DNA of 64,000 bases from Bacteroidales bacterium (GCA_028282585.1 JANQHR010000097.1:32001-96000), one strand, 5' to 3'. Counted from the first letter of the stretch, positions 1,809-50,310 are shown. Numbers and translations: made by a program. The notes: a model not told the origin generated them from the sequence alone.

Positions 1809-1853
1809 AGCTGTTTAATGAATTAAAATATTGTATCATTAAAATATTACAAC

Positions 1854-3194: not shown

Positions 3195-3288
3195 GCTATG
3201 AGGAAATCAATGACTGAAATAAATATTGAGAAGCAGAATTACTTTAATCAAGTATTTAGTAAATTTAATGTACTCAAATTTTAATCGG

Positions 3289-5558: not shown

Positions 5559-5637
5559 TATTTTTTTCATGCATTAAAACGCTTGAATTTGGTATCAATT
5601 TTGAGGGTATTTTTATACTTAATCAAAACTAAATATC

Positions 5638-8004: not shown

Positions 8005-8024
8005 GTTTTAGCTTTTTGGTTTAT

Positions 8025-9251
8025 TTATACAGTTGATGCTTTAAGGCCTTTATCAATTTCATTCAAAAAATCTTCGGTATTTAAATAATGTTCTTTCTTT
8101 AAATTGTCTCCATGAATAATAAGTGCTAAATCTTTTGTCATTTTTCCAGATTCAACAGTTTCAATAGACACTTTTTCTAAACTATTAGCAAATTTTATTA
8201 ACTCATCATTTTTGTCAAGCATACCTCTAAAAGCCAACCCTCTTGTCCACGCAAAAATTGAGGCTATAGGGTTTGTAGATGTTGGCTTACCTTGCTGGTG
8301 TAACCTATAATGCCTTGTTACCGTACCGTGAGCAGCTTCTGATTCCATTGTTTTTCCGTCGGGAGTTATAAGCGTTGATGTCATCAATCCTAATGAACCA
8401 AAACCTTGTGCTAAACTATCAGACTGAACATCACCATCATAATTTTTACAGGCCCACACAAATTCTCCTTCCCATTTCATTGCAACAGCTACCATATCAT
8501 CAATTAACCTGTGTTCATATGTTATTCCTAATTTATCAAACCTCTCTTTGAATTCTGACTCAAATATTTCCTGGAAAATATCTTTAAACCTGCCATCATA
8601 TTTTTTCAAGATGGTATTTTTTGTAGACAAATAAAGCGGCCATTTTTTTAACAATGCCTGGTTCATACATGCTCTGGCAAAACCTTTTATTGAATCATCA
8701 AGATTAAACATTACCATAGCAATTCCATCATCATCAAAATTATGTACGTCATAACTTACTTCTTCACTCCCATTGTCCGGTATAAAAGTTACTTTCAATT
8801 TGCCTTTCCCTTTAACCAAAAAATCAGTGGCTATATACTGGTCTCCAAAGGCGTGACGGCCAATACAAATTGGTTTGGTCCAATTTCTGACTACAGGCTT
8901 GATATTGTTAACCATTATTGGTTCTCTAAAAACCGTACCTCCTAACATTTTTCGTATAGTACCATTTGGAGATTTCCACATTTGTTTTAAACCAAACTCT
9001 TCAACCCTTGCTTCATCAGGTGTAATTGTAGCGCATTTAACTCCAACATTATATTTTTTTATAGCTTCAGCAGCATCAACAGTAATTTGATCATTTGTTT
9101 CATCTCTTTTTTGAATACTTAAGTCATAGTATTTTAAGTCAATATCCAAATATGGAAAAATCAGTTTTTCCTTTATCTCTTTCCATATTACACGGGTCAT
9201 TTCATCACCGTCTATTTCAACAACGGGGTTAATAACTTTAATTTTTTGCAT
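8025..9251 (-). CDS. icd: NADP-dependent isocitrate dehydrogenase (eukaryote-like homodimeric type)
   Basis: [53 protein letters not shown] at 9251. Confidence 0.96.
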
Positions 9252-9257
9252 AAACAA

Positions 9258-11519
9258 TTATTTATTTTGTGATTTAATGAGATTTAATGCTGCTCCTGCT
9301 TTGTACCACTCAATTTGTTGCTGATTATAAGAATGAGACAATTTGACAATTTTACTTTCACCGGTACTACGAATAATTTCTAACTCAATCAATTTCCCTG
9401 GTGAGAAGTCTTTAAGATTAATAAAGTTAAAATCGTCATCCTCTCCAATATGATCATAATCATCCTCGTTTACAAAGGTTAAGGCTAACATTCCTTGCTT
9501 CTTCAGATTTGTTTCATGTATACGGGCAAATGATTTCGCTATTACAGCCTTTACACCTAAATGACGTGGCTCCATTGCAGCGTGTTCGCGCGACGAGCCT
9601 TCTCCATAGTTATGATCTCCTACCACTATACTAGGTACTCCTAATCTTTTGTAATCTCGTTGTACGTTAGGCACTTCATCATATTTGCCTGTAATTTGAT
9701 TTTTAATTGAATTGGTTTTATTGTTAAAAGCGTTAACCGCTCCAATTAACATATTGTTTGATATATTATCTAAATGCCCTCTATATTTTAGCCAGGGGCC
9801 TGCCATTGAAATATGATCTGTTGTACATTTTCCTAATGCTTTTATCAATAATTTTGCTCCTCTGATGTTTTCTCCGTTCCAAGGTTCAAATGGACTTAAT
9901 AGTTGTAATCTATCAGATTCGGGATTAACTTTAACTTCTATATTATGACCATTTTTAGCAGGGGCTTTGTAGCCATTGTTTTCAACATCAAATCCATTTA
10001 AAGGTAGTTCAATGCTTTCAGGTGGATCCAATTTTACTTTTTCGCCTTTTTCATTAACCAATTCATCCGTAAGAGGGTTAAATACAAGTTCACCTCCTAA
10101 AACCATTGCTGTTACTAACTCAGGTGATGTAACAAAAGCATGGGTATTAGGATTACCGTCGGCTCTTTTAGAAAAATTCCTATTAAATGAATGAACGATA
10201 GTATTTCGTTCTTGCTTTTCTGAATTCTGCCTTTTCCATTGCCCTATACATGGCCCACAGGCATTGGCAAAAACTTTAGCCCCAATTTTATTAAGGGCGG
10301 AAATAAACCCATCTCTATCAATTGTATAGCGCACTTGTTCAGAACCCGGTGTTACAGTAAAAGTAGATTTCGCTTTTAATCCTTTTTCTACAGCCTGCTT
10401 TGCAATCGATGCTGCTTTTGAAATGTCTTCATAGGAAGAATTTGTACAAGAACCTATCAGTCCTACTTCAATTTTTAATGGCCAGTTATTTTTAATTGCT
10501 TCCTCCTTTAATTCAGAAATTGGAGTTGCTTTATCTGGTGTAAAAGGTCCATTAACGTGAGGCTCCAATTCAGTAAGGTTTATTTCAATGAGTTGGTCAA
10601 AATATTTTTCCGGATTTTCAACTACCTCTTTATCAGGAGTAAGGTGTTGGATAATGTTATTTGCTAAACCAGCAACTTTTTCTCTTCCCGTTGCTTCTAA
10701 ATATCTTTCCATCGAATCATCATATGAAAATAACGAAGTAGTAGCACCAATTTCTGCACCCATATTACAAATTGTACCTTTACCCGTTGCTGATATTGAT
10801 TTTGCACCTTCCCCAAAATACTCAATAATATATCCGGTACCTCCTTTTACCGTAAGAATTCCAGCTAATTTTAATATAACGTCTTTAGGTGATGCCCATC
10901 CATTTAGTTTTCCGGTAAGTTTTACACCAATTAATTTTGGCATTTTCAATTCCCAAGGCATTCCAGCCATAACGTCTACTGCATCAGCTCCACCAACACC
11001 TATAGCAACCATTCCTAATCCACCCGCATTAGGAGTATGTGAATCCGTGCCAATCATCATTCCTCCTGGAAAGGCATAGTTTTCCAGAACTACCTGATGA
11101 ATAATACCAGCTCCGGGCTCCCAAAAACCTATTCCGTACTTATTAGAAGCCGATTCCAGAAAGTCAAAAACTTCTTTATTGGTAATTATTGCATCTTTTA
11201 AATCATCTTTACCTGTTTTATAAGCCTGTATAAGATGATCACAGTGGACAGTAGATGGTACTGCCACACTAGTTTTTCCTGAATTTATAAACTGTAAAAG
11301 CGCCATTTGTGCTGTGGCATCTTGCATAGCTACCCGGTCCGGTCTAAAATCAACATAATCTGCGCCTCGTATAAAATCTTCTATATTTTCTGAATATAAG
11401 TGCGTATATAATATTTTTTCAGCAAGACTAAGCGGGCGATCTAATTTCTTCTTTACCATTTGCATTTTTACATCATACAATTGATAAACCGATTCTATTA
11501 ACTCAATATCAAATAGCAT
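9258..11519 (-). CDS. acnA: Aconitate hydratase (mitochondrial-like type)
   Basis: [63 protein letters not shown]. Confidence 0.95.
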
Positions 11520-27526: not shown

Positions 27527-28570
27527 ATGAAGAAAATTCATGCTGTAATTATTGTAATATTACTTGCAACTCAGTTATATGGGCAAATTGGTGGCACTCA
27601 CACCTATGATTTCTTGAATTTGATCAATTCTGCAAGAGTAGCATCATTTGGAGGTGATGTAATTGCCATTAATGATAATGATTATAGCTTAACATATCAT
27701 AATCCTGCTTTATTAAATCCAAATATGAATCAGGAATTGGCACTAAATTATGTCAATTATTTTACTGATGTGAATTATGGTTATGCCTCCTATGCATCGA
27801 ATATTAGTAACTATGGTATTTTTTCGGGAGGAATTCATTATATAAATTATGGGAAGTTCATTGCCGCTGATGAAAAAGGCATTATAACCGGTGAATTTAA
27901 GGCTGCAGAGTATGCTATAAACCTAATCTATTCAAGAGCCATAGATAGCACGTTCCGGCTTGGGGTAAATGTTAAACCAATAATTTCAACACTTGAAAAA
28001 TATACATCTTATGGCATTGCAGCTGATTTTGGAGTAGTTTATAATAAACCTGGTAGTTTATTTACTGCTGCTTTGGTTATAAAAAATGTAGGAACCCAAC
28101 TAAAAGCTTATACCGACACCAGGGAAACTTTACCATTTAATATCCAGTTAGGGATATCTCAAAAATTGAAACACGCTCCATTTTTATTTACAGTCACCTT
28201 TGATCACTTAGAAACCTGGGATTTAACGTATGATGAACCACAAAGTGAAGATGTAATCTTAGATCCGGCGGCAAGCGAAGAATCCGAATCTAAAATTGAT
28301 AAACTAGCTGATCAGTTTATGCGACACATTATTCTTGGAGTTGAATTCAATCCAATCAATAATTTTTATGTTCGCGCTGGATACAACTACAGAAGAAGGC
28401 AAGAAATGTTAATTGAATCAAAAACATCTACTATTGGTTTCTCATGGGGATTTGGAGTTAAAATATCTAAATTCCATATAAATTATGGCAGAGCTACTTA
28501 CCATTTAGCCGGAGCTTCCGATCATTTTTCCATTTCAACTAATCTTAATAGTTTTAAGAAAAATTTATAA
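27527..28570 (+). CDS. porQ: Type IX secretion system protein PorQ
   Basis: QIGGTHTYDFLNLINSARVASFGG, HNPALL, RAGYNYRRRQEM. It lies directly upstream of cmk, the synteny usual in Bacteroidetes. Confidence 0.85.
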   Translation: MKKIHAVIIVILLATQLYGQIGGTHTYDFLNLINSARVASFGGDVIAINDNDYSLTYHNPALLNPNMNQELALNYVNYFTDVNYGYASYASNISNYGIFSGGIHYINYGKFIAADEKGIITGEFKAAEYAINLIYSRAIDSTFRLGVNVKPIISTLEKYTSYGIAADFGVVYNKPGSLFTAALVIKNVGTQLKAYTDTRETLPFNIQLGISQKLKHAPFLFTVTFDHLETWDLTYDEPQSEDVILDPAASEESESKIDKLADQFMRHIILGVEFNPINNFYVRAGYNYRRRQEMLIESKTSTIGFSWGFGVKISKFHINYGRATYHLAGASDHFSISTNLNSFKKNL

Positions 28571-33455: not shown

Positions 33456-34202
33456 ATGAGACAGCGAATCAGAAATGCAATTATCCTTTTTTTCTTTCTA
33501 ACTTTTCCTATCTCATTAAATTACTTTTCTCCTTATGTAATTATTGATGGTTTACGTAAAGGAGTTATTGCCGGAAGTGCTCTTTTATTTACAACCCAAT
33601 TGCTTTCTGCATTATTTCTTGGAAGAGCATTTTGTGGTTGGATTTGTCCTGCTGGTGGGTTACAAGATTATTGTACCTCCGTAAATTCCAAAAAGATTAA
33701 AAATGGAAAAGCTAATTGGATTAAATACTTTATCTGGGTACCATGGATTTCTTTAGTACTTTTTATTGGTTTAAAATCAGGAGGAACCATTAAGATTGAT
33801 CCGTTTCACATGACGAATTACGGTATTTCTGTTTCGGAACCGTCAGCATATATTAATTATCTTTTGGTAGTTTTTCTATTTGTAATCTTATCATTCATTT
33901 TTGGCAAGCGAGCATTTTGTCACTATGGTTGCTGGATGTTCCCTTTTATGATTATCGGGTTAAAAATCAGAAGCATCTTAAACATACCTTCACTCAAACT
34001 GAAATCAACTCATTATAAATGTACAAATTGTTTGCAATGCAATAGTGTTTGTCTTATGAGTCTGGATGTAAATAACATGGTAAACGATTCAAAAATGAAT
34101 CATGATGAATGTGTACTTTGCGGCAGATGTGTTGATAGTTGTAGTTCAGAAGCAATTAAATATGCTTTTTCCTCTAAAAATATTAGTACTTTTAAGATAT
34201 AA
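33456..34202 (+). CDS. NapH/MauN-like membrane 4Fe-4S binding protein
   Basis: GRAFCGWICPAG, KRAFCHYGCW, CTNCLQCNSVC, CVLCGRCVDSC; TM helices. Confidence 0.85.
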   Translation: MRQRIRNAIILFFFLTFPISLNYFSPYVIIDGLRKGVIAGSALLFTTQLLSALFLGRAFCGWICPAGGLQDYCTSVNSKKIKNGKANWIKYFIWVPWISLVLFIGLKSGGTIKIDPFHMTNYGISVSEPSAYINYLLVVFLFVILSFIFGKRAFCHYGCWMFPFMIIGLKIRSILNIPSLKLKSTHYKCTNCLQCNSVCLMSLDVNNMVNDSKMNHDECVLCGRCVDSCSSEAIKYAFSSKNISTFKI

Positions 34203-34212
34203 AATTAAAACT

Positions 34213-35277
34213 ATGTTTGATTACAATCGTGAAAATTACTATCGGTCTGTTTTAAAACAAATAATCATTATAAGCCTTCTTGCAGGTTTAATCATTACCT
34301 TATTTTACTATTACAGAACAATTGCTAACAATGAACCCAGACAACTAAGAGATAGCATTATATCATTCATATTTTCGGTATTGGTAACTTTTTCAATATT
34401 CAGTATAAATATACAGTTGGCCAGAATATTAGAAAAATGGTATCCGTGGGGCAAAGAATTTTTTAAACGTTTATTTATTGAAATTACGTTAACAACATTA
34501 GTTGCTGCTACAACAATCTCAATCATTTTAACAATTTTTCTTTTGTTCCTGGGTAAACCTCAGGGAGATACCAATCTCCGAATAACTTATTTGGACCATA
34601 TAATACAAGCAATATTATTTAATAGTATCGCAATGGTGATTATTGAGCTGGGAGCAGTTGTAAAACAATGGAAAGAATCTGTTATAAAATCAGAACGATT
34701 AGAAAAAGAAAATATTTTATCTCAATTCGAAGCATTAAAACACCAACTAAATCCTCATTTTATGTTTAATAGTTTGAATGCACTTTCTTCGTTAATTGAT
34801 GAGGAACCTGAAAAAGCTAAAAAGTTTTTATCAATGTTTTCTAAAATGTATCGTTATATTTTAGAGGTTAAAGATAGGCTTGTTGTTGAAGTTAACGATG
34901 AACTAGAATTTATTAACGCTTACATTTTTATGCAAAAAATAAGATATAACAACAATCTAAATGTTGAAACCAAAGTTAAATCAAGTGAACTAAAAAAGTA
35001 TTTACCTCCCCTATCATTACAATTATTAGTTGAAAATGCCTTAAAACATAATGAAATATCGAATGATCATCCATTGAATATTTCTATTTGTTCTGAAAAC
35101 GATAACATAATTGTTAAAAACAACTTGAAAATAAGAAATAATGAAAGTAATAAATCCGGAATCGGACTTGAAAATCTTAGAAAACGAATTAACTTTATAT
35201 CTGATAAGGAACCCGAGTTCTATACCAAAAATAATCAGTATATAGCTAAGATTCCATTTATAGAAATTGAAGAATAA
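34213..35277 (+). CDS. LytS/YehU-family sensor histidine kinase
   Basis: LKHQLNPHFMFNSLNAL, LQLLVENALKHN, GIGLENL; N-terminal TM helices. ATG at 34213 avoids the overlap implied by the track's start at 34102. Confidence 0.9.
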   Translation: MFDYNRENYYRSVLKQIIIISLLAGLIITLFYYYRTIANNEPRQLRDSIISFIFSVLVTFSIFSINIQLARILEKWYPWGKEFFKRLFIEITLTTLVAATTISIILTIFLLFLGKPQGDTNLRITYLDHIIQAILFNSIAMVIIELGAVVKQWKESVIKSERLEKENILSQFEALKHQLNPHFMFNSLNALSSLIDEEPEKAKKFLSMFSKMYRYILEVKDRLVVEVNDELEFINAYIFMQKIRYNNNLNVETKVKSSELKKYLPPLSLQLLVENALKHNEISNDHPLNISICSENDNIIVKNNLKIRNNESNKSGIGLENLRKRINFISDKEPEFYTKNNQYIAKIPFIEIEE

Positions 35278-35296
35278 AAATTAATATTTTGTAATT

Positions 35297-36037
35297 ATGA
35301 AAAAGTCATTACTATTTCTTGCCGCAGTTTTATTATCAGTTACAATTCATGCTCAGGCAGAAAAAAAAGAAATAAAATTTAACAGTTCTGATAACATTAC
35401 TATTACCGGCGATTTATATCTAACGTCAAACTTGAGTGCGCCTTTTATCATTCTTTTTCACCAAGCAGGGTATAGCAGGGGTGAATATATTGAGACAGCT
35501 CCTAAATTTAATAAACTTGGATTTAACTGTTTAGCTATTGACCAGAGATCTGGCAAGGGCGTTAATGATATTCCAAATGAAACTAATAAGGAGGCTTCAA
35601 AAAAGGGTTTGTCCACTGAATATCCAGATGCCATGCCAGACCTGGAGGCTGCGATAAAATATGTTGAAAAAAATTACGAACCTAAAAAACTCATTATTCT
35701 TGGTAGCTCCTATTCTTCCTCCCTTTCTTTAGTTTTAGCCGCGAAATACCCGGATAAAATTGATGCTGCACTAGCTTTTTCTCCGGGTGAATATTTCCTT
35801 TTTGAAGATAAAAAAATAGAAGATTATGCTTCAAAAATTGAGATACCTGTTTTTATAACCTCTGCTAAAAGCGAAGAACACATGTGGAAACCATTTTTTG
35901 AAAAAATACCTGAATCTTATAGAACTAGTTATTTACCAGAAGTTGAAGGAATTCATGGAAGCAGGGCTTTATGGGAAAAAATTGAAGGAAATAAAGGATA
36001 TTGGGAAGCAGTTAAAAGTTTTTTGGACAAGCTTTAA
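35297..36037 (+). CDS. Exported alpha/beta hydrolase (dienelactone-hydrolase-like)
   Basis: Signal peptide, ILFHQAG, AIDQRSG, nucleophile elbow GSSYS, HGSRAL. Confidence 0.8.
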   Translation: MKKSLLFLAAVLLSVTIHAQAEKKEIKFNSSDNITITGDLYLTSNLSAPFIILFHQAGYSRGEYIETAPKFNKLGFNCLAIDQRSGKGVNDIPNETNKEASKKGLSTEYPDAMPDLEAAIKYVEKNYEPKKLIILGSSYSSSLSLVLAAKYPDKIDAALAFSPGEYFLFEDKKIEDYASKIEIPVFITSAKSEEHMWKPFFEKIPESYRTSYLPEVEGIHGSRALWEKIEGNKGYWEAVKSFLDKL

Positions 36038-36040
36038 GCA

Positions 36041-36805
36041 ATGAAAATCTTAATCATTGAAGATGAAAAAATAGCTGCAAACAACCTGGAGAAATTATTA
36101 AAACAAATATCTCCTAAAATCCAGGTACTGGACAAATTAGAGACTATCCGTAGTTCTGTTAACTGGCTTTCAAACAATAAAGCCGACCTTATTTTTTTAG
36201 ATATCCATTTAGCAGATGGTTTAAGTTTTAAGATTTTTGATGAAATTGAAATTAATACTCCGATAATTTTTACAACAGCTTATGATAACTATGCTATAAA
36301 AGCTTTTAAATTAAATAGTGTTGATTATTTGCTTAAACCCATTGATATTGATGAACTTCAACAAGCTGTTAATAAATTTGAAAATATACATTTAAATAAT
36401 AATCAACAGATTACTGATTATAAGGCTTTAATTGAAGTTATTCAAAATCCAAAATCTACTTATCAGAAAAGATTTTTAATAAATGTTGGTTCCAAAATAA
36501 AATCTGTCGATATCAAAAGTATCGCTTATTTCTATGCAGAAGATAAAGCTGTATATGTCTGTACAAAAGATAAACACCGATATATTATTGATCAAACTAT
36601 TGAGAAGTTGGAAACTATTTTAGATCCTGAATTTTTCTTTAAGATTAGTAGAAAATTCATTATTCATGTTGATGCAATCGAAGAAATGCATACCTTATCA
36701 AAAAGCAGAATAAAAATTGACTTAAATCCCCTATGTGATCCAGAGGCCATTGTTACAATAAATAACGTTTCCGAATTCAAAAACTGGCTAAAAGGAAATA
36801 ATTAA
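36041..36805 (+). CDS. LytTR-family response regulator
   Basis: IIEDE, FLDIHLADG, FTTAYD, DYLLKP; C-terminal LDPEFFFKISRKFII. Confidence 0.92.
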   Translation: MKILIIEDEKIAANNLEKLLKQISPKIQVLDKLETIRSSVNWLSNNKADLIFLDIHLADGLSFKIFDEIEINTPIIFTTAYDNYAIKAFKLNSVDYLLKPIDIDELQQAVNKFENIHLNNNQQITDYKALIEVIQNPKSTYQKRFLINVGSKIKSVDIKSIAYFYAEDKAVYVCTKDKHRYIIDQTIEKLETILDPEFFFKISRKFIIHVDAIEEMHTLSKSRIKIDLNPLCDPEAIVTINNVSEFKNWLKGNN

Positions 36806-42492: not shown

Positions 42493-43122
42493 AATTTTCG
42501 GTTGTAGTTAGTATTTTTCTTAAAGTTGGGATTATGTAATGTAAACGCAATCGACAAAAATAAGTTGTAATAACAAATTCATAATCTTTATGTTTTAAAA
42601 GTTTCTGGTTTGTTATTAAATATACAGCAATCATTAATAATATGCTATAGTTTAAAAAAACTCTTCACGCCACTTTATTCGCTTAAATACCAATGCCACA
42701 GGCATTAGTTAAGTTAATATTTACTACCCACAACCATACTAATACAACCAGCTATTTCGATTGTATCCTTGTAATTGTATGGCCTCTCATACATACCTTA
42801 TGCTATTTAAATGCTCACCTTTTGAATCAGGTATAAGGTTTTAAGGGATCAGAATTTTCTTGTCGATACTAGTTTATCTTACAAGTTTTAATTTAACGAT
42901 AGCAATAAATCATTCTTTCTAAAAAAGTTTATTCAAAATCTTTCCTCCATTAACATTAAGCAAAATCTGCAACTCAAATTTTCTCTTGATTTAAGCAACT
43001 TAAAAGTGAACTTTCTATTTTATAATTTGTCAACTAATTATTAGTCAATAAAACCGAATTTATGAGTTTATGCGAAAAAAGGGCATAAGCGGCAAATAGA
43101 CAACTTTAAACACATAAATCTA

Positions 43123-43617
43123 ATGAAATTAATAAATTATCTTTTAAGCCTGATATTAATATCAAATATTTTATCTACCTCCGCTAAAGGGCAATCAATA
43201 TACAACTATACGTTTATTGATATGGAAGGAAGTGAAGTTGAGCTATCTGAACTTAAGGGTGAAAAACTCACTGTTCTTGATTTTTGGGCAACCTGGTGTA
43301 AACCTTGTATCAAATCAATTCCTAAACTAATTCAGTTATCAGAAGAATTTAAAGATTCCGGCGTAAATTTCATTGGAGTTAACGAAGATAGTCCACGTAA
43401 CAGTTCAAAAGTAAAACCCTTTGCATACTCTTTAGGCATTACATACCCTGTAATACTTGATACTGATCAGGTTTTAATGAATGATTTATTAGTTAGTTCG
43501 CTTCCTACTTTAATTATTGCTAACGCTGAAGGCGAGATTCTCTATACGCATATTGGTTATTCCAATAATGATGAAATAATCCTGAAACAAAAAATTGAGG
43601 CTCTTTTAAATGAATAG
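43123..43617 (+). CDS. Exported TlpA-family thiol:disulfide oxidoreductase
   Basis: Signal peptide; LDFWATWCKPC; SLPTL (cis-Pro loop). Confidence 0.9.
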   Translation: MKLINYLLSLILISNILSTSAKGQSIYNYTFIDMEGSEVELSELKGEKLTVLDFWATWCKPCIKSIPKLIQLSEEFKDSGVNFIGVNEDSPRNSSKVKPFAYSLGITYPVILDTDQVLMNDLLVSSLPTLIIANAEGEILYTHIGYSNNDEIILKQKIEALLNE

Positions 43618-45106
43618 ATATAAATACATAAAGCTATCTGTAATTATAATTGTTTTTTCCACCAACGCTCATAGTCAGGGTGTTTTCAGAGGCAGTAATT
43701 TGTTAGAATACCAATTAGGAAATATTCCGGGTTTGGAGCCTGAATATCAATCATCATTATATGATCAACTAAATTTATCATACAAATTTAAATCAATCAC
43801 TCTCCAAACCAGAATTGAACAGTATTACCCGTCTTTTGATGATAACAAAAGTTATACTAACATAAGTCAGTACAGAGCTAAATTTAAAACAGAAGAATTA
43901 TCCATTGCAATTGGGAATATATATCCCTCTTTTGGGAGAGGGTTGTTATTAAGAACTTATGAGATTCCTGGTTCCATTTGGGAAGATCGAGGTTTTAGAG
44001 TAAGGTACGGATTCTACAAAGACCTTGAAGGAGCAGAAATAAATTATAAGCTGGGAAAATTTAAAATAAAAGGGGTTTATGGAAAAGTTTTAGATGTTAC
44101 ACTTCCCCCAACTTTAAGCAAAAACGAGCGCAGACCAGATTTAGTGCAGGGAGCAGAACTTAGTTTTCGGCATAAAAAACTTGGATTAGGAACCATTTTT
44201 ATGAATCATAAGATTGCCGAAAATAATGATAACTATGTTTCTACATATATGAAAAGCGGGATTACAAAGAATTTATCTTTATATACAGAATTAGCTTTAA
44301 AAGCTGGATCCGATGCAGAACTTAAATTTGATAATGATAGTACCTATGGTTTTTATTTTAGTTTAAACTACGTTAGGAAAAGACTAGGAATAAGTTTAGA
44401 ATTAAAAGACTACAAGAATTTTTCAATAGGTTCAGGAATATCTGACCCTCCAACCTTGGTTAAAGAACATTCTTATAAATTATTAAATAGAAGTACTCAT
44501 GTTCCGATTTTATCTAACGAACGAGGTTATCAACTGGATATTTATTACAGATTACCCAACAACAATCTTTTTACTTTTAATCATTCAATAGCTTATAACG
44601 AAATATCAGAGTCGAAATCGTATCTTTTTAAAGAATTTTTTACCGAGTACCAAACTCAATTTGGGGAACAAATATTAGCAAACTTCTTTTTAGATTATTC
44701 TAGTGATCCGTTTACAAATGAAGATAACAGATATTCCGGAGGATTTATTTTTGATATTAGCCACAATAAAGCAAATAGCATAATAGAAAGCCAAATACAA
44801 TTTGTTGAAAGGAAAGTAATTGAAACAAGCAAATTTTATAATTTTTATTTTTCTTATCAGTTTAATATCAGGAATAAACTAACTACATCGGCTCTTTTAG
44901 AAATAAGTAAAGATCCCTTTTTGTTAAATGAAAATGAAGAATACGCTTTTTATCCCGGAGGAACACTTTCTTACCGACCAAATAACAAACATAACATAAT
45001 AATATTCTATGGAAAAAGAAGAGGTGGGCCGGCATGTAATTCCGGAATTTGTTATGATGTATTAGATTTCCAGGGTTTAGAAATCAGAATTTTGTCACAC
45101 ATATAA
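43610..45106 (+). CDS. Outer-membrane beta-barrel protein with C-terminal CxxxxC motif (DUF6029-like)
   Basis: Signal peptide; aromatic-rich alternating strands; GNIYPSFGRGLLLRTYE and YGKRRGGPACNSGICY motifs; overlaps tlpA by 8 nt. Confidence 0.7.
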   Translation: MNRYKYIKLSVIIIVFSTNAHSQGVFRGSNLLEYQLGNIPGLEPEYQSSLYDQLNLSYKFKSITLQTRIEQYYPSFDDNKSYTNISQYRAKFKTEELSIAIGNIYPSFGRGLLLRTYEIPGSIWEDRGFRVRYGFYKDLEGAEINYKLGKFKIKGVYGKVLDVTLPPTLSKNERRPDLVQGAELSFRHKKLGLGTIFMNHKIAENNDNYVSTYMKSGITKNLSLYTELALKAGSDAELKFDNDSTYGFYFSLNYVRKRLGISLELKDYKNFSIGSGISDPPTLVKEHSYKLLNRSTHVPILSNERGYQLDIYYRLPNNNLFTFNHSIAYNEISESKSYLFKEFFTEYQTQFGEQILANFFLDYSSDPFTNEDNRYSGGFIFDISHNKANSIIESQIQFVERKVIETSKFYNFYFSYQFNIRNKLTTSALLEISKDPFLLNENEEYAFYPGGTLSYRPNNKHNIIIFYGKRRGGPACNSGICYDVLDFQGLEIRILSHI

Positions 45107-45116
45107 ACTAAATGAT

Positions 45117-45905
45117 ATGAAAACAATGAAAATTTTTACTTTAATAATATGTCTCCAAATTCTTAACTTTGCGCAAACTAATGTTTTAGCTCAAGGTGTT
45201 GGAGATTCTGCACCTGACTTTACATTAAACACAGTAAATGGAAATGAATTTACTTTGTCTGATCATGCCGGAAAAGTAATATTTTTGTTTTTCTTTGGTT
45301 ACAGTTGTCCACACTGCTTAGCTAATGGAAATAATACTGAAACTGGTATCTATGATGCTTTTAAAGATAACTCAGATTTTGTGGCATTGGGAATTGATAC
45401 ATGGGATGGCAATAAATCGGGCGTTGAAAATTTTATTAATCAAACCGGCATTACTTATCCCGTTGCAATGACTGGGTCTTCGGTTCAATCTTTATATAGT
45501 ACAACTTATGATCGTATTATTGTTATAGATCAAAGTGGCACTATTCAATTCAAGGCAACATCTAATGCAACGTCTGGTGTGGTAAGTGACGCAAAGCAGG
45601 TAATCGAAAGTCTTTTAACTACAACTTCCACTAATGTTTTCGGAAGTATAGGCCAATCTTTAAATATATATCCAATTCCAGCAAAGGAATCAATCTTTAT
45701 AGAAAATCTGGATGCACGAATTGAATATGCAAATTTCGAAATTTTAAATATGTCAGGGCAAATAATTCGTTCAAATAATCTAAATTATTTGGGATCCGGT
45801 GAAACCATAGAATTACCTTTGAACGAATTAGACGGTGGAATTTATATTTTACGATTAAACAGCGAGCAAAATACTTATACCAGAAGGTTTATCGTTACAA
45901 AATAA
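45117..45905 (+). CDS. Redoxin (AhpC/TSA-like, CxxC) with a type A T9SS C-terminal sorting domain
   Basis: Signal peptide; GDSAPDFTL...FFFGYSCPHC; CTD LNIYPIPAKESIFI...ILNMSGQII...LDGGIYILRL...TRRFIVTK. Confidence 0.85.
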   Translation: MKTMKIFTLIICLQILNFAQTNVLAQGVGDSAPDFTLNTVNGNEFTLSDHAGKVIFLFFFGYSCPHCLANGNNTETGIYDAFKDNSDFVALGIDTWDGNKSGVENFINQTGITYPVAMTGSSVQSLYSTTYDRIIVIDQSGTIQFKATSNATSGVVSDAKQVIESLLTTTSTNVFGSIGQSLNIYPIPAKESIFIENLDARIEYANFEILNMSGQIIRSNNLNYLGSGETIELPLNELDGGIYILRLNSEQNTYTRRFIVTK

Positions 45906-45916
45906 TTTAACGTATG

Positions 45917-45952
45917 TGGGAAGATGACATTATATAGAATCTTCCCATTTCT
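45917..45952 (+). terminator. Intrinsic terminator after the redoxin operon
   Basis: TGGGAAGAT / ATCTTCCCA stem followed by TTTCT. Confidence 0.55.
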
Positions 45953-46074: not shown

Positions 46075-47610
46075 ATGAAGCCTTACAAAATCTTTTTGTT
46101 TCTAATAAGTATTTTTATATTGCTTTTTGTTATATCGATGGCTTTTCCTAAGGATGGAATCCAGATTAGAAATAATATCTTTCTTCGATTTCCTGATATC
46201 AGAAATGTACTTACGCCAGAAGAATCAAAATATGCGGATATTTCAGAAATATTAAAATATCATCAAGAGGAAATTACTAAAAATATAGAAGATCTGGTAT
46301 TAGATACTACCATAAATAATTCTGACTCAATTCTTGTTGCCGATTCTTTAAAAGCTGAAATTCCAAAAGATACAATCGTTAAAAACGAAATTAAAACCAA
46401 AATAACGACTAAAACACAACCAGGTGAGATTCTTCAAAGGCTTGAATATCCTAATAATAATCTAGAAACCTTATATCCCTTTTTCAATCATTTAAAAAAC
46501 CTAAACCAATCCGGAGAACTTATAAGAATTTTACACTATGGTGATTCTCAAATAGAAGGAGATCGTATCAGTTCTTATATTCGAAATGAGTTACAAAAAC
46601 AGTTTGGTGGCTACGGTATTGGAATGTTTGCCCCCGTTATAATAAAAGGTACCAATATTTCAATGAACCTGGACCTGAATGGTACTTGGGAACGGTTCAC
46701 AATTCAAAGTATTAAAAACGGAAATATTACCCATAAGCGACTGGGAGCCTTGATGAGTTTTGGCAGATTCGTGCCATTAAATTCATTTGAAAACAAAATG
46801 TATTTTGGAGAGATCAATTTATATAAATCAAATATTACATATTTACGCACTCGAAAATTCAAAAAATGTAAAGTATTTTACGGATATAATGAAAAACCTT
46901 TCATTGCTGAATTAAAGTATAAGGAAAATACGCTTGATGCGGAATTAATTGCAAGATCAAATCAATTAAGTACTATAACCTGGGATATTGAAGGAAGTTT
47001 AGATGAAATTACCATAAGTTTTAAAGGTGAGGATAGTCCTGATATTTACGCAATTGCTTTAGATGATCAATCCGGTATTGCCGTTGATAATATTCCATTA
47101 CGTGGAAGTAGTGGAACCGATTTTACAAAAACTGACATTGCTTTTCTTAGGTCTATGTATCAGCAAATTAATGCCAAATTAATTATAATGCAATTTGGTG
47201 TTAATCTTGTCCCCCACGTGGTAGATGACTATTCCTATTATGAAAAACAATTTTATAAACAATTAAAAACCCTAAAAGGACTCAGGCCTGACATTTGTAT
47301 TATCGTTATTGGGGTTTCTGATATGTCGCAAAATAAATATGGAAGATTTGTATCCTATCCTAATATTGTAAAAATTCGAGAAGCACAGAAAAATGCTGCC
47401 TTTAAAGCAGGTTGTGTGTTTTGGGATATGTATGAAGCTATGGGTGGAGAAAACTCCATGCCATCATGGGTACATAATGATCCACCTTTGGCTAGAACTG
47501 ACTATACGCATTTTACCTGGAAAGGATCAGTTGTAATATCAAAAATGTTTTTTGAAGCTTTAATGCATGATTATAATAAATTTCTGAAAATTGAGAATAT
47601 TGATCATTAA
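46075..47610 (+). CDS. SGNH/GDSL-family protein (PatB-like O-acetyltransferase/esterase)
   Basis: N-terminal TM; ILHYGDSQIEGD, DNIPLRGSSG, QFGVN, DYTHF. Confidence 0.8.
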   Translation: MKPYKIFLFLISIFILLFVISMAFPKDGIQIRNNIFLRFPDIRNVLTPEESKYADISEILKYHQEEITKNIEDLVLDTTINNSDSILVADSLKAEIPKDTIVKNEIKTKITTKTQPGEILQRLEYPNNNLETLYPFFNHLKNLNQSGELIRILHYGDSQIEGDRISSYIRNELQKQFGGYGIGMFAPVIIKGTNISMNLDLNGTWERFTIQSIKNGNITHKRLGALMSFGRFVPLNSFENKMYFGEINLYKSNITYLRTRKFKKCKVFYGYNEKPFIAELKYKENTLDAELIARSNQLSTITWDIEGSLDEITISFKGEDSPDIYAIALDDQSGIAVDNIPLRGSSGTDFTKTDIAFLRSMYQQINAKLIIMQFGVNLVPHVVDDYSYYEKQFYKQLKTLKGLRPDICIIVIGVSDMSQNKYGRFVSYPNIVKIREAQKNAAFKAGCVFWDMYEAMGGENSMPSWVHNDPPLARTDYTHFTWKGSVVISKMFFEALMHDYNKFLKIENIDH

Positions 47611-48775
47611 AATATTAATTCTATCAATTGCTATTTCAACTTATAGTCAAAATAGTTGTGATACATTATTGTTTTTAGATTGTAACAGAAATTTTATAGC
47701 GAGAACAGATAACGCAGAAGCATTTACTTTTATAGAAAAATTTGCGAAAATCGGCACTCAGAAAAAACCTATCAAGATTGTTCACCTTGGTGATTCACAT
47801 TTGCAAGCCGGCTTTTTAACAGAAAAAATTAAACAAGGATTATTTCAAAAATTTATTACGGATACAATTGCTTCGCCAGGATTTATTTTTCCGTATACTA
47901 TCGCTCAAACGAATAATCCGTTCTTTTATAAAGTGGATTATACAGGAAAATGGGAATGGTGTAAAAATATTGACATAGAAAAAAAATGTAGCCTTGGCCT
48001 ATCAGGAATTACAGTAAGAACTGAGGATTCTACAACATCGTTCCAAATCAAAATGCAAAATAAAAAGTACAATTATCCTGTAAAATACTATTTCAATTCA
48101 GTAAGGCTATTTCATTCTTTAGATTCCGTTGATATTTATGTAAATAATGTTAAAGCTAAAACACAAAATGGCATTTCTATAGTTAATCTGGAAAATCTTA
48201 CAGACTCGATTTCAGTAAAGGTATTCACTACCGGAAATAAAAACCAATTTGAATTATATGGTTTAATATTTGATAATTCTAGTGGAAGCATCAGCTATCA
48301 TGCAATTGGAATAAATGGCGCCACAGCACAATCTTACCTTAAATGTGATTATTTATCAAATGACCTTTTAAATATCGATCCGGATTTAATTATTATATCG
48401 CTTGGAACAAATGAAGCGTTCGATGTAGATTTCAATATAATTGAGCATGAGTATATATTAAAAGATCTGATTTTTCAAATCAAAGATGTGGTTCCTAAAG
48501 CTAATATTTTGTTAACCGTTCCAAATGACCATTTCAAAAAGGGAAAATCAAATAAAAATGTTTTAGCTGTTCGAGAAAATATATTAAACGTATGCAACGA
48601 ACTTAATTTATTAAGTTGGGATTTTTATTCGATTATGGGCAGTGAAAATTCTATTGAAAGCTGGTATAAAAAAGGATTAACAGGTGAAGATAAGATCCAT
48701 TTCAAAAAGAAAGGGTATGAGGTGCAAGGAGAATTGTTTGTAAATGCATTAATTAAATTAGTTGAAAAGCACTAG
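47591..48775 (+). CDS. SGNH/GDSL-family protein (PatB/Ape-like)
   Basis: VHLGDSHLQAG, IGINGA, SLGTNEA, DKIHF. Confidence 0.8.
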   Translation: MRILIIKILILSIAISTYSQNSCDTLLFLDCNRNFIARTDNAEAFTFIEKFAKIGTQKKPIKIVHLGDSHLQAGFLTEKIKQGLFQKFITDTIASPGFIFPYTIAQTNNPFFYKVDYTGKWEWCKNIDIEKKCSLGLSGITVRTEDSTTSFQIKMQNKKYNYPVKYYFNSVRLFHSLDSVDIYVNNVKAKTQNGISIVNLENLTDSISVKVFTTGNKNQFELYGLIFDNSSGSISYHAIGINGATAQSYLKCDYLSNDLLNIDPDLIIISLGTNEAFDVDFNIIEHEYILKDLIFQIKDVVPKANILLTVPNDHFKKGKSNKNVLAVRENILNVCNELNLLSWDFYSIMGSENSIESWYKKGLTGEDKIHFKKKGYEVQGELFVNALIKLVEKH

Positions 48776-50310
48776 TGGATATTCTTAAAGAAATATTATT
48801 ATATTCCGAGGCGAAGCCTTTGCTATTTAACAGGTTATACTTCTGGGCTTTTTTTGGTTTTTTGCTTGGAATTTATTCTTTCATCTATAAAAAAAATCCA
48901 TTAAGAAATGCTTACCTGTTTTTCATGAGTTTGTTTTTTTATTATAAATCAGGAGGATATTTCTTTACATTACTTGTTTTTTCAACAATTGCAGATTTTA
49001 CGCTTGGGCAACTAATTTATAATTCGAAAACATCTTTAAAGAAAAAAATATTTGTTGCAACGAGTATTATTATCAATCTAAGTCTTTTAGGGTACTTTAA
49101 ATACACATATTTTTTTACCGATATAATCAATAAAACATTCCAAACTAACTTTGAGGTTTTCAATTACCTGGCCTCCTGGACAAATGATCTTACCGGATCA
49201 GGCTTTGATATCTCGAGGATTATATTACCCGTAGGAATATCTTTTTATACTTTCCAAACAATAAGCTATACGGTTGATGTTTACCGAGGAAAAGTAAAGC
49301 CTGTCAAAAACATTATTGATTTTGGATTTTATGTATCATTCTTCCCACAACTGGTCGCAGGACCTATTGTTAGGGCTTCCGAATTTGTACCACAACTCTA
49401 CCAAAAGTATAAACTAACCAAACAAGAATTTGGCCATGCTGTATTCCTCATTTTAAATGGATTGATAAAAAAAATGCTTATTTCCGATTACATTTCTATA
49501 AATTTTGTCGATCGAATTTTTGAATCTCCTACATCCTTCACAGGGTTTGAAAACCTAATGGCAGTTTATGGATATTCAATCCAAATTTACTGCGATTTTT
49601 CAGGTTATACAGATATCGCGATTGGAGTTGCATTATTACTTGGGTTTAGATTGCCAATAAACTTTAACTCCCCATATAAAGCTATTAATATTACCGATTT
49701 TTGGCGAAGATGGCATATATCTCTTTCCACATGGCTTCGAGATTACCTTTACATCCCATTAGGAGGAAACCGTAAGGGAAAAACCAGAATGTACATAAAC
49801 TTAATGATAACTATGCTACTTGGTGGTTTATGGCACGGGGCAAATATTCGATTTATTATTTGGGGAGGTTTACATGGCTTGGGATTAGTAATTCATAAAC
49901 TTTGGGTAAAATTGAATCTTTCTTTAAGTAAATACTATACTTCACGTTCCAGTAAAAATATTCTGTTTCGTTTTATCTCTGTCTTTACAACATTTCATTT
50001 GGTAACTTTTGCTTGGATATTTTTTCGAGCGGAAAATACGGATAAAGCTTTTGGAATGATTAGTCAAATCGCAAATAATTTTCAATTTAAGCTAATACCA
50101 ATAATGTTTTCTTCATACATTAAGATTTTCTTAATAACTATTTTGGGATTTGCAATTCACTGGTTACCTTCTCATTTTAAAGAAAATTATCGAGGATGGT
50201 TTATTAAATCTCATATTATGCTAAAAGTGATTATTGCATCGTTAGTCATTTTTATTTTATATCAGGTTAAATCGGCCGAAATTCAGCCATTCATTTATTT
50301 TCAATTCTAA
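48775..50310 (+). CDS. MBOAT family O-acyltransferase (PatA/AlgI-like)
   Basis: LPVGISFYTFQTISY, FFPQLVAGPIVR, DFSGYTDIA, FWRRWHISLSTWLRDYLYIPLGG, GLWHGA. Confidence 0.92.
   Translation: MDILKEILLYSEAKPLLFNRLYFWAFFGFLLGIYSFIYKKNPLRNAYLFFMSLFFYYKSGGYFFTLLVFSTIADFTLGQLIYNSKTSLKKKIFVATSIIINLSLLGYFKYTYFFTDIINKTFQTNFEVFNYLASWTNDLTGSGFDISRIILPVGISFYTFQTISYTVDVYRGKVKPVKNIIDFGFYVSFFPQLVAGPIVRASEFVPQLYQKYKLTKQEFGHAVFLILNGLIKKMLISDYISINFVDRIFESPTSFTGFENLMAVYGYSIQIYCDFSGYTDIAIGVALLLGFRLPINFNSPYKAINITDFWRRWHISLSTWLRDYLYIPLGGNRKGKTRMYINLMITMLLGGLWHGANIRFIIWGGLHGLGLVIHKLWVKLNLSLSKYYTSRSSKNILFRFISVFTTFHLVTFAWIFFRAENTDKAFGMISQIANNFQFKLIPIMFSSYIKIFLITILGFAIHWLPSHFKENYRGWFIKSHIMLKVIIASLVIFILYQVKSAEIQPFIYFQF

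Follow-up and report, generated by a model that had tools for sequence, protein, structure and literature searches.

A TlpA-like protein, a DUF6029 barrel and a surface-targeted redoxin in Bacteroidales: a candidate thiol-based conduit across the outer membrane

To our knowledge, no thiol-disulfide pathway described in a diderm bacterium reaches beyond the periplasm, and those in which DsbD or CcdA supplies TlpA, ResA or CcmG are no exception. The W-C-x-P-C scaffold of the TlpA/ResA type is a reductant-type one in its characterised members, and the TlpA of Bradyrhizobium has a role in copper-centre assembly. Thioredoxin-like proteins are also found on cell surfaces. HBP35 of Porphyromonas gingivalis (PDB: 5y1a), as outlined in PMC2907840, is a surface-located type IX secretion system (T9SS) cargo with a thioredoxin motif and thioredoxin activity in vitro; our literature search found no description of its electron supply. 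In Streptococcus pneumoniae, surface thioredoxin-family proteins Etrx1 and Etrx2 act with CcdA and MsrAB2 against extracellular oxidative stress, according to the account in PMC3914529. MtrCAB is a system of matching architecture: its large barrel houses a redox protein from the periplasm, which meets another exposed at the surface, and electrons thereby cross the outer membrane (as described in PMC7198977 and PMC12076491). LptD-LptE likewise combines a large barrel with a globular plug, and disulfides of the barrel matter for its maturation, as presented in 10.1101/2023.01.02.522452.

In a window of 64,000 nucleotides from a Bacteroidales genome (the whole stretch of DNA that was analysed), a first-pass annotation had singled out three adjacent genes, proposed that their products form a disulfide relay across the outer membrane, and named no characterised pathway of this architecture as known; our literature search also found none described. 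We put at about even the odds that this cassette is a conduit in which thiols would carry electrons through the outer membrane, on the plan of the MtrCAB porin-cytochrome complex. The more specific version, in which a soluble, DsbD-charged TlpA plugs a 24-stranded DUF6029 barrel and uses the barrel's re-entrant cysteine hairpin to pass reducing equivalents on to a thioredoxin-fold protein anchored at the surface, we hold more tentatively.

The comparison with the described systems brings out both likenesses and differences. The architecture resembles that of MtrCAB, but the cassette would combine a predicted insertion of TlpA with thiol-disulfide chemistry, and has neither haems nor any sequence relationship to MtrCAB. 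By inspection, none of the three proteins contains a CxxCH or a Sco-type motif, and a porin-cytochrome conduit of the MtrCAB type was rejected on the CxxCH count (0/3), the architecture being analogous only. LptD-LptE differs in its LPS insertion function and in that LptE is a lipoprotein without a redox site, and there is no homology. Etrx1/Etrx2 structures (PDB: 4hqs, 2yp6, 4hqz) are among the matches of genes 1 and 3; however, their Gram-positive host has no outer membrane to cross, and there is no barrel.

The three genes and their genomic setting

The cassette consists of three plus-strand ORFs encoding proteins of 164, 498 and 262 aa (genes 1, 2 and 3; Table 1). Genes 1 and 2 overlap by 8 nt (43610-43617), genes 2 and 3 are separated by 10 nt (45107-45116), and the stop of the upstream neighbour at 42492 leaves 630 nt ahead of the cassette, in agreement with the tight coupling and the ~630 bp of upstream non-coding DNA noted earlier. 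Scans of this leader found no Rfam family, tRNA or ORF longer than 66 aa; its last ~150 nt align solely with the closest relative (L002), and a promoter scan gave 21 sigma-70-like sites versus 25.0 +/- 4.5 in shuffles, which is not above chance. As to expression, a survey of sequencing runs turned up no RNA run; it yielded one DNA run, which may derive from the source sample, and two further runs of that study with almost none of the sequence words. As to the terminator said to close the cassette, the stable hairpin stands (-14.2 kcal/mol, z -3.44; 0/200 shuffles as stable), but it is missing from the list produced by a simple terminator scan. Hydrophobic N-terminal leaders, judged by eye, are consistent with the signal peptides claimed for all three proteins. 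Reading of the sequences also upheld the claim of a single Cys pair per mature protein: WCKPC in gene 1 (cysteines 59 and 62), Cys476/Cys481 in gene 2, where they are the only cysteines, and SCPHC in gene 3, whose cysteines are at 12, 64 and 67 and whose mature form has one pair because Cys12 falls in the hydrophobic leader.

Table 1. Features of the cassette and its surroundings, in window positions; residue numbers are those of the encoded proteins
Feature	Position	Strand	Basis
PorQ gene	27527-28570		NF033711, E 5.4e-119, 397 bits
Non-coding leader or promoter region, 630 nt	42493..43122		No ORF >66 aa
Gene 1: TlpA/ResA-like periplasmic thioredoxin-fold protein, 164 aa, N-terminal hydrophobic leader	43123..43617	+	Pfam Redoxin/AhpC-TSA
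TlpA active-site motif W58-C59-K60-P61-C62 (WCKPC)	43294..43308	+	Read from sequence
Gene 2: DUF6029 outer-membrane beta-barrel, 498 aa, ~24 strands	43610..45106	+	PF19494 + AlphaFold2
Barrel residues 270-302, long conserved loop modelled into lumen	44417..44515	+	Conservation + model
Barrel residues 473-484, small beta-hairpin, Cys476/Cys481 flanking tip (C-N-S-G-I-C)	45026..45061	+	DSSP
Gene 3: putatively secreted redoxin, made up of a leader, a Redoxin domain, a linker and a T9SS type A sorting domain at the C-terminus, 262 aa	45117..45905	+	Pfam/TIGR04183
Redoxin domain of gene 3, aa 28-163	45198-45605	+	Pfam Redoxin E 2.2e-13
Redoxin active-site motif C64-P65-H66-C67 (CPHC)	45306..45317	+	Read from sequence
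T9SS sorting domain of gene 3, aa 184-260 of 262	45666-45896	+	Por_Secre_tail/TIGR04183
Terminator-like hairpin, 10-bp stem, 13-nt loop, then AUUUCUU	45916..45948	+	RNA fold

Gene 1 matches the Pfam families Redoxin (PF08534: E 1.1e-20, 74.4 bits, cut-off 26.6) and AhpC-TSA (PF00578: E 1.5e-20, 73.8 bits, cut-off 26), and we assign its product, whose active site is of the CxxC type, to this thioredoxin-fold family. In the PDB its best matches are ResA (1e-22) and 2m72 (2.4e-19), with 4txo and 4txv also among the structures found. It falls under the NCBIfam cut-offs both for ResA proper (NF002854: 95.1 bits, cut-off 170) and for TlpA proper (NF047696: 50.5 bits, cut-off 230); judged from its sequence, the protein is 'TlpA-like' and neither of the two. 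With the DsbD/CcdA-supplied TlpA, ResA and CcmG pathways it shares the Redoxin-family fold, the W-C-x-P-C motif, ResA as best PDB relative and a DsbD in the genome, but unlike their members it is linked to an outer-membrane barrel and is not dedicated to cytochrome c or CuA maturation. A profile of barrel-linked TlpAs scored 185.7 bits against the window TlpA and 84.2 against the next paralogue in the source genome, and the window protein is the sole paralogue there of a dedicated subfamily. Across the 61 barrel-adjacent homologues, A56, W58, C59, P61 and C62 are invariant. A loose C-terminal motif (G-aromatic-x-x-G/N/D-D/E-E) was rejected as a signature: only 45/61 adjacent TlpAs match it, and a paralogue without a barrel among its neighbours (C147_70647) matched it falsely, at the N-terminus.

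The gene 2 product, present in a single copy in the source genome, matches DUF6029 over model positions 60-535 of 538 (PF19494: E 1.6e-25, 90.2 bits, cut-off 27), its Atlas neighbours are DUF6029 clusters, and we classify it as a member of this family. The one published remark on DUF6029 that we found, in PMC9603273, proposes a polysaccharide porin from HHpred similarity to Wzi-like barrels. The AlphaFold2 model (pLDDT 95.9, pTM 0.90) is a ~24-stranded pore, and in fold it comes closest in the PDB to PapC and FimD, usher pores of 24 strands (TM 0.40-0.52; Foldseek E 1.6e-9 to 1e-7). The likeness to these chaperone-usher pores is one of fold and ~24-strand size class; gene 2 was rejected as a chaperone-usher pore, since identity is 8-10%, the plug and the N-terminal and C-terminal domains of ushers are all lacking, and profile searches of the window detected no pilus genes near the cassette.

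Gene 3 had been described as a redoxin fused to a type A T9SS sorting domain, and profile searches found Redoxin and, above its cut-off, TIGR04183. The sorting domain (PF18962 Por_Secre_tail: E 6.1e-12, 46.1 bits, cut-off 27; NCBIfam TIGR04183: E 2e-12, 46.8 bits, cut-off 23) lies at the extreme C-terminus, by which the protein is classed as a putative T9SS type A cargo, and it would place the redoxin on the cell surface. The PorQ gene reported from the same window is indeed present. The PDB relatives of gene 3 are ResA-type thioredoxin-fold proteins. It works like HBP35 yet has no PF11551 match, and being a ResA-like Redoxin instead it was rejected as an Omp28/HBP35 member. A search of the source genome for Omp28 gave no match, but the same search matched no control genome either. 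A C-P/S-H-C motif occupies the active-site position in the relatives L002-L004 and in loci of family f29; CPHC we take to be a DsbA-type oxidising motif, typical of oxidases.

The source genome (4.9 Mb) has 22 Redoxin matches among 4236 ORFs of at least 100 aa, and hence Redoxin genes flanking one gene on both sides are not expected by chance. It encodes DsbD (DsbD_TM, a 671-aa ORF), a possible electron donor, and a search of the genome (98% complete) for DsbA, DsbB and VKOR found none; therefore a reducing supply exists, and none of the known oxidising pathways was detected. Three Bacteroidales MAGs have the same three genes in the same order, with barrel identities of 89, 65 and 63%, and because the flanking genes differ in two of the three, the cassette travels as a unit.

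Gene neighbourhoods of DUF6029 barrels

A sample of 301 Bacteroidota genomes yielded DUF6029 in 79 (about a quarter), and DUF6029 clusters occur in Ignavibacteriota too. We surveyed 69 Bacteroidota loci from 21 families, counting a partner where it lay within 1.5 kb of the barrel. Among these loci, which are mutually related and include 19 from one family, a TlpA-like CxxC gene accompanies the barrel in 61/69 (20/21 families) and a surface-targeted CxxC thioredoxin-like protein in 57/69 (19/21 families). Outside the counts are the barrel of L014 and the TlpAs of L013 and L025, which gene picking missed though phmmer found them, and L029, which lies below the 50-bit barrel threshold. In 60/72 loci the TlpA gene stands directly upstream of the barrel, and in 54/72 the two are co-oriented. 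An adjacent TlpA is missing in 8/69 loci; family f32 has none in its 6 loci, and there a TPR protein with faint TPR_Slam matches is found instead. The co-occurrence of homologous barrels with thioredoxin-fold genes, on which the first-pass annotation had made its relay depend, was thus borne out across the 21 families.

The 57 third partners comprise 28 Omp28 lipoproteins, 15 Omp28 proteins with a T9SS tail and 14 redoxins with a T9SS tail. The profile of the Omp28-type partners matches Omp28 (2r2c) at 1.6e-31 and HBP35, a homologue, over its whole length (5y1a) at 6.1e-8, and in hhalign the part of this profile around CxxC can be aligned to that of TlpA (probability 88%). These non-homologous partners have only two things in common, namely a thioredoxin fold with CxxC and targeting to the surface. 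The cassette of the window is best classified as one flavour of a wider module, whose third partner is usually Omp28/HBP35-like. One small neighbour with a T9SS tail, searched alone, gave sorting-domain matches only, and the identification of such neighbours as PorA relatives was rejected when a profile of 12 of them reached only E 0.61 against PorA (6kjk).

With its CPHC motif, the gene 3 redoxin could be a surface DsbA-like oxidase for secreted proteins, with the barrel and TlpA carrying electrons inward or performing reductive proofreading; no DsbA, DsbB or VKOR was found in the source genome, and therefore an alternative oxidase would fill a gap. We consider this highly unlikely: an electron acceptor for TlpA is neither known nor encoded nearby, the gene 1 scaffold is of the reductant type, and the Omp28-type partners, which make up most flavours of the module, carry C-x-N-C-P and not CPHC.

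Predicted complex of TlpA and the barrel

Barrel residues 24-498 and TlpA residues 24-164 were modelled together from our own unpaired alignments. The resulting ipSAE, the model's own confidence, was 0.84, 0.85 and 0.85, as against 0.00 for the best of 3 controls; the mark used is reached by 116/157 solved complexes versus 2/215 mismatched pairs, counts that apply only roughly here because own alignments were used. The runs share at least 88% of contacts, with partner pLDDT of at least 86. At the barrel end that holds both termini, 11 of the 12 short-turn or terminus regions provide the wall contacts with TlpA, and from the opposite end only two loops reach it, 279-288 and 478-480. The former belongs to the loop 270-302, between strands 259-269 and 303-314 of the model, which touches TlpA through residues 279, 281-282, 286 and 288; on the TlpA side the interface includes residues 56-60 of the active-site region. 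With a membrane topology deduced from the order of the strands and from the contacts listed, TlpA is predicted to plug the barrel at its periplasmic mouth, and the loop 270-302 and the Cys476/Cys481 hairpin to fold from the outer side down the lumen to TlpA. For TlpA, the structural check proposed in the first-pass annotation came out in its favour, with TlpA predicted in the barrel and the tip of the CxxxxC hairpin within the interface. A TlpA plugged in this manner would need recharging far from the inner-membrane DsbD, which speaks against a conduit.

Interface positions are not elevated in conservation, either in the barrel (0.435 vs 0.424 elsewhere, p 0.37) or in TlpA (0.571 vs 0.535, p 0.17), and account for 7 of the barrel's top 40 positions by conservation. 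This, together with the many TlpA-like paralogues of Bacteroidota and the abundance of Redoxin matches in the source genome, would suit independent envelope proteins of a co-regulated stress operon whose products do not interact directly. Such an arrangement is extremely unlikely in view of the adjacency in 20/21 families, a gene arrangement suited to translational coupling, the dedicated TlpA subfamily and the contrast of complex scores with the controls.

The best conserved residues of the barrel instead cluster in two places, the loop 264-308 in the lumen and the surroundings of the cysteine hairpin. Within the loop 270-302, the columns of P280, P281, E286, L292, N293, R294 and H297 are near-invariant. 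In the hairpin (strands 473-477 and 480-484 by DSSP), C476, G479 and C481 are each at least 90% conserved, and the window barrel shows the pattern C-x-x-G-x-C, which was set in this analysis and not by Pfam. CX4C is present in 91/93 full-length barrel representatives (clustered at 50% identity), in 70/72 barrels from other loci and in 67/69 sampled loci; 81/93 representatives have exactly two cysteines after residue 25, and in one (P0051) both are gone together. The conservation that the relay required of these cysteines therefore holds, but they could still form a structural disulfide, since a CX4C across a hairpin tip fits a staple too.

The same clustering of conserved residues away from the TlpA interface is what one would expect of a channel that imports or exports a substrate, be it haem, a thiophilic metal or some small compound of the thiol or disulfide type. 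The cysteines of the hairpin would then form its binding site together with the conserved loop that contains His, Arg and Glu, and the redoxins would process or deliver the substrate on either side. The role of Bradyrhizobium TlpA in copper centres, with 4txo and 4txv among the gene 1 matches, points the same way, as do the haemin binding of HBP35 (stated in PMC2907840), to which the commoner third partner is related, and the porin role suggested in PMC9603273. Nonetheless, a channel is distinctly unlikely: the predicted TlpA plug would fill its periplasmic mouth, the loci compared show no conserved neighbour of the module that encodes a transporter, a metal chaperone or polysaccharide export, and the three proteins lack CxxCH and Sco-type motifs on inspection.

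Alternatively, the barrel could serve as a pore or docking platform for the export, anchoring or assembly of the thioredoxin-fold surface protein and the nearby small T9SS-tail proteins, with no electrons crossing the membrane, TlpA acting as an LptE-like plug or as a redox chaperone that keeps the cysteines of both cargo and barrel reduced, and the hairpin cysteines as a structural staple. Usher pores, the best folds for the barrel, translocate folded protein domains; the predicted plug-in-barrel geometry is known for LptD/LptE (as presented in 10.1101/2023.01.02.522452); the partner in most flavours is a lipoprotein that needs a route to the surface; and in family f32 the TPR protein with faint TPR_Slam matches replaces TlpA. 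In P. gingivalis, consecutive locus tags cover a thioredoxin-domain protein (PG2175), an uncharacterised protein found in vesicles (PG2174), Omp28 (PG2173) and PorA (PG2172), and PorA is surface-exposed without the T9SS translocon according to PMC7712824. We rate such a device as unlikely, though: the window encodes PorQ, and its third protein already bears a sorting domain for the T9SS, and therefore no extra exporter is needed; the CxxC pair, and not an export route, is common to all flavours; an invariant catalytic motif in TlpA would be needless if it were a mere plug; and the PorA match of the small T9SS-tail neighbours is only E 0.61.

A surface reductase and its possible roles

Under the conduit model, the DsbD of the genome would charge TlpA, which would pass reducing equivalents through the barrel lumen, via the hairpin cysteine pair or directly; the surface redoxin would receive them from the lumen and might then reduce extracellular or surface disulfides or repair oxidised surface proteins. 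The relay proposed in the first-pass annotation is favoured by conservation, co-occurrence and the TlpA-barrel prediction; set against these, electron transfer through the barrel cysteines is a step that we purely infer, and CPHC is oxidase-like.

The module offers a direct, testable answer to how surface thioredoxin-fold proteins, of which HBP35 is the studied example, could be recycled. If the model is true, Bacteroidota and their relatives would gain a powered reductase outside the cell, in which cysteines do what haems do in the MtrCAB wire. The module would also give a function to DUF6029 and the Omp28 family, add a new kind of plug-in-barrel complex, and could explain how HBP35-like surface thioredoxins and surface cysteine enzymes stay reduced.

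The consecutive P. gingivalis locus tags suggest a version of the module beside porA. That set, for which we found no reported function, includes PorA, a T9SS regulator ligand, and differs from the cassette in that its third partner is an Omp28 lipoprotein and not a redoxin with a T9SS tail. If the module does lie there, surface redox chemistry would be linked to type IX secretion and to surface cysteine protease activity, and the module could matter for the attack of these bacteria on disulfide-rich substrates.

Architecture of the cassette and its neighbourhood

The cassette consists of three co-oriented genes, whose coupling through an 8-nt overlap and a 10-nt gap, as proposed in the first-pass annotation, is borne out by the ORF coordinates: gene 2 starts 8 nt before the end of gene 1, and gene 3 follows gene 2 after 10 nt. 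Judging from sequence, the parts belong to known families, namely Redoxin, DUF6029 and type IX secretion system (T9SS) cargo. The signal peptides and cysteine motifs previously ascribed to all three products are likewise in place, in that each protein has by eye a basic and then hydrophobic N-terminal leader, and WCKPC, the barrel pair 476/481 (the only cysteines of gene 2) and CPHC can be read directly. Gene 1 has ResA (1e-22) and then the uncharacterised thioredoxin-like protein 2m72 (2.4e-19) as its nearest solved structures, and since it scores below the NCBIfam cut-offs of both ResA and TlpA, "TlpA-like" is the right label. It is the sole paralogue in the source genome to fit the profile of the barrel-linked TlpA subfamily well (185.7 bits; next 84.2), and gene 2 is the genome's single DUF6029 copy. 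In gene 3, the Redoxin domain covers aa 28-163 and contains C64-P-H-C67; fused to it, as originally reported, is a T9SS sorting domain of type A at aa 184-260, where TIGR04183 scores above its cut-off.

Features of the cassette and of its neighbours in the window
Feature	Coordinates	Strand	Remarks
Gene 1, TlpA-like	43123-43617	+	164 aa; Redoxin/AhpC-TSA thioredoxin fold, E 1e-20; W58-C59-K60-P61-C62
Gene 2, DUF6029 protein	43610-45106	+	498 aa; PF19494, 90.2 bits
Gene 3, redoxin with T9SS tail	45117-45905	+	262 aa
Whole cassette	43123-45905	+	genes 1-3
PorQ, T9SS attachment complex	27527-28570	+	NF033711, E 5.4e-119; between glycosyltransferase and cmk
Probable O-acylation genes	46075-50310	+	two GDSL/SGNH-like proteins, DltB/MBOAT-like membrane acyltransferase
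Fe-S/cytochrome cluster	3-6567	+	QrcC/DsrO-like Fe-S subunit, DsrP/NrfD-like membrane subunit, cytochrome c domain protein
Citrate synthase group	6637-11519	-	citrate synthase, NADP-isocitrate dehydrogenase, aconitase, side by side
Ferredoxin-type cluster	33456-36805	+	NapH/MauN-like membrane protein, two ORFs without family match, LytTR-type response regulator

The claimed non-coding stretch ahead of the cassette was upheld, its 630 nt being free of any ORF longer than 66 aa, Rfam family or tRNA in the respective scans. The closing terminator stands in part: downstream there is a hairpin of 10 bp with a run rich in U after it (-14.2 kcal/mol, z -3.44), although a simple terminator scan did not flag it. 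PorQ is present in the window as stated earlier. The genes past the hairpin probably serve to O-acylate a surface polymer; they also adjoin the cassette in L002, one of three related Bacteroidales loci, and not in the other two, L003 and L004. The Fe-S/cytochrome cluster resembles a quinol oxidoreductase of the alternative complex III type.

Spread and composition of the module

The same three genes recur in the same order in three Bacteroidales metagenome-assembled genomes (barrel identity 89, 65 and 63%), and the differing flanking genes in two of these indicate that the cassette moves as a unit. The barrel family PF19494 was detected in 79 of 301 sampled Bacteroidota genomes, which spread over 46 of 144 genera; the 14 control genomes gave no match, and one DUF6029 cluster is dominated by Ignavibacteriota. 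Besides the source genome, 78 genomes contain PF19494; loci were retrieved from 70 of them, and leaving out L029, a locus with a barrel below threshold, gave 69 loci from 21 GTDB families, which are not independent, 19 of them coming from one family. A TlpA-like CxxC gene lies at most 1.5 kb from the barrel in 61 of the 69 (20 of the 21 families) and a surface-targeted CxxC thioredoxin-like gene within the same distance in 57 (19 families); the barrel's C-terminal CX4C, counted by locus, is found in 67. For scale, the source genome has 22 Redoxin matches in 4.9 Mb. The TlpA gene is directly upstream of the barrel in 60 of 72 loci and co-oriented with it in 54 of 72. This neighbourhood survey answers in the affirmative the earlier question of whether such barrels co-occur with thioredoxin-fold genes; the module is widely conserved, and the cassette is one of its variants. 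That co-regulation is all that links the genes appears extremely improbable.

The surface partner takes three forms: 1) an Omp28-family lipoprotein with an N-terminal C-x-N-C-P motif (28 loci); 2) an Omp28-family protein with a T9SS tail (15 loci); 3) as in the window, a redoxin similar to ResA that carries a T9SS tail (14 loci, all of GTDB family f29). PF11551 matched 17 of 18 CxxC neighbours tested. With the profile of the Omp28-type partner, Omp28 is matched at 1.6e-31 (2r2c) and HBP35, along the full length of that profile, at 6.1e-8 (5y1a); the part of the profile around CxxC can be aligned to that of TlpA with a probability of 88%. HBP35 is described as a T9SS cargo on the cell surface with thioredoxin activity (PMC2907840). 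Four genes are usual in the f29 loci (L056-L074): TlpA, with CKPC, and the barrel, with CTSGIC, are accompanied by two CPHC redoxins, one of ~269 aa that bears a T9SS tail and one of ~175 aa encoded between it and the barrel. The shorter redoxin is missing from the window's clade. Non-homologous proteins can thus stand in for the third partner, and what is constant across the forms is a thioredoxin-type CxxC combined with a route to the cell surface.

Two further variations were observed. In family f32 (L009, L012, L020, L024) a ~205-220 aa TPR protein occupies the usual TlpA position, with faint Pfam matches to TPR_Slam and CcmH/CycH-TPR for the proteins of L009, L012 and L024; an adjacent TlpA is found in 0 of 6 f32 loci and the Omp28 CxxC lipoprotein is kept in 6 of 6. 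Small T9SS-tail proteins of 233-281 aa adjoin the TlpA gene in L010, L013, L015-L017, L019, L022, L027, L038, L039, L041 and L042; they have an invariant cysteine pair of their own (C78/C83 in their alignment, A5), their profile reaches PorA (6kjk) at an E-value of only 0.61, and the window's cassette contains no such gene.

A predicted reductase-barrel complex

An exhaustive DUF6029 search recovered 441 representative proteins at E <= 0.001, and 93 full-length ones (465-560 aa) occur among the 150 matches listed. Of these 93 among the listed matches, 91 carry C-x4-C inside the final 45 residues, and in 81 the sequence beyond residue 25 holds two cysteines and no more; the barrel cysteines, whose conservation was singled out earlier for checking, are near-invariant in this set. 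One exception, the representative P0051, has lost both hairpin cysteines together (Tyr and Phe instead) and keeps the surrounding motif; in the other the C-terminus is divergent and does not align to the conserved end of the family. C476, G479 and C481 of the barrel are conserved at at least 90%, and A56, W58, C59, P61 and C62 are invariant in 61 barrel-adjacent TlpAs.

The barrel model (pLDDT 95.9, pTM 0.90) has 25 long strands by DSSP, and among PDB structures it is most similar to the usher pores PapC and FimD, which have 24 strands (E ~1e-9, TM 0.40-0.52, identity 8-10%). That the barrel is a channel whose substrates are thiols, metals, haem or polysaccharide is quite unlikely; the polysaccharide role was briefly proposed from HHpred similarity (PMC9603273). 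The final two wall strands of the model have a small hairpin (473-477, 480-484) between them, and Cys476 and Cys481 sit on either side of its tip.

Barrel residues 24-498 and TlpA residues 24-164, each with its own alignment, gave ipSAE values of 0.84, 0.85 and 0.85, against 0.00 in three controls. As calibration, 116 of 157 solved complexes attained the mark for this score, as did 2 of 215 mismatched pairs; these rates are only approximate here because own alignments were used. We know of no solved complex resembling a TlpA in a DUF6029 barrel, which makes it unlikely that the predictor simply reproduced a known structure. The runs share at least 88% of contacts, with partner pLDDT of at least 86. 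Predicted wall contacts involve alternate inward-facing residues near 11 of 12 short turns and both termini (27-31, 495-497). In barrels assembled by BAM the end with short turns and termini is, as a general rule, periplasmic, which would place TlpA at that end. From the opposite end, predicted contact with TlpA is limited to 279-288, part of a long and conserved loop (270-302), and to the hairpin tip 478-480 between the cysteines; on TlpA itself the active-site turn (56-60) takes part, as do 88-105, 119-126 and 141-150. Such contacts agree with a wall of 24 strands from which segment 94-116 makes an excursion into the periplasm. Read against the strand map, the model has TlpA seated as a plug in the mouth on the periplasmic side, and above it the cysteine hairpin projects into the lumen; the earlier expectation of a CxxxxC loop in the lumen touching thioredoxin folds is thus supported by the model for the TlpA contact.

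The plug-and-barrel form resembles LptD/LptE and the architecture MtrCAB, neither of which is homologous to the cassette. Less improbable than the channel, though still unlikely, is a device for export, anchoring or assembly in which TlpA is a plug in the manner of LptE. As a separate observation, P. gingivalis PG2175, a thioredoxin-domain protein expected in the periplasm, appears among outer-membrane-vesicle proteins in PMC13744359, which would fit association with an outer-membrane barrel.

Redox context and proposed function

DsbD is present in the source genome (98.35% complete), and DsbA, DsbB and VKOR were not found there by searches positive in 8, 6 and 3 of 14 control genomes. A reducing supply thus exists and a known oxidising pathway was not detected. 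An oxidising, DsbA-like system at the surface is judged very unlikely.

In the searched literature, DUF6029 occurs in a single work as a passing remark, the locus tags PG2172-PG2175 only in proteome tables and PorA papers, and for an outer-membrane disulfide relay with surface thioredoxin, TlpA and T9SS nothing relevant was found except the pneumococcal Etrx proteins. The view that no pathway of this architecture has been characterised agrees with that search. Etrx and HBP35 are the nearest functional analogues of the surface redoxin.

The reading we prefer, with chances that we put at about even, is a reducing relay: DsbD would reduce TlpA docked in the barrel, TlpA would pass electrons to the hairpin cysteines or straight through the lumen, and the surface redoxin would receive the reducing equivalents and then act on extracellular or surface disulfides. 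The envelope module that the cassette represents is real, unstudied and under tight conservation; a reductase seated in an outer-membrane barrel has model support, and the relay across that membrane is what we propose the module may serve.
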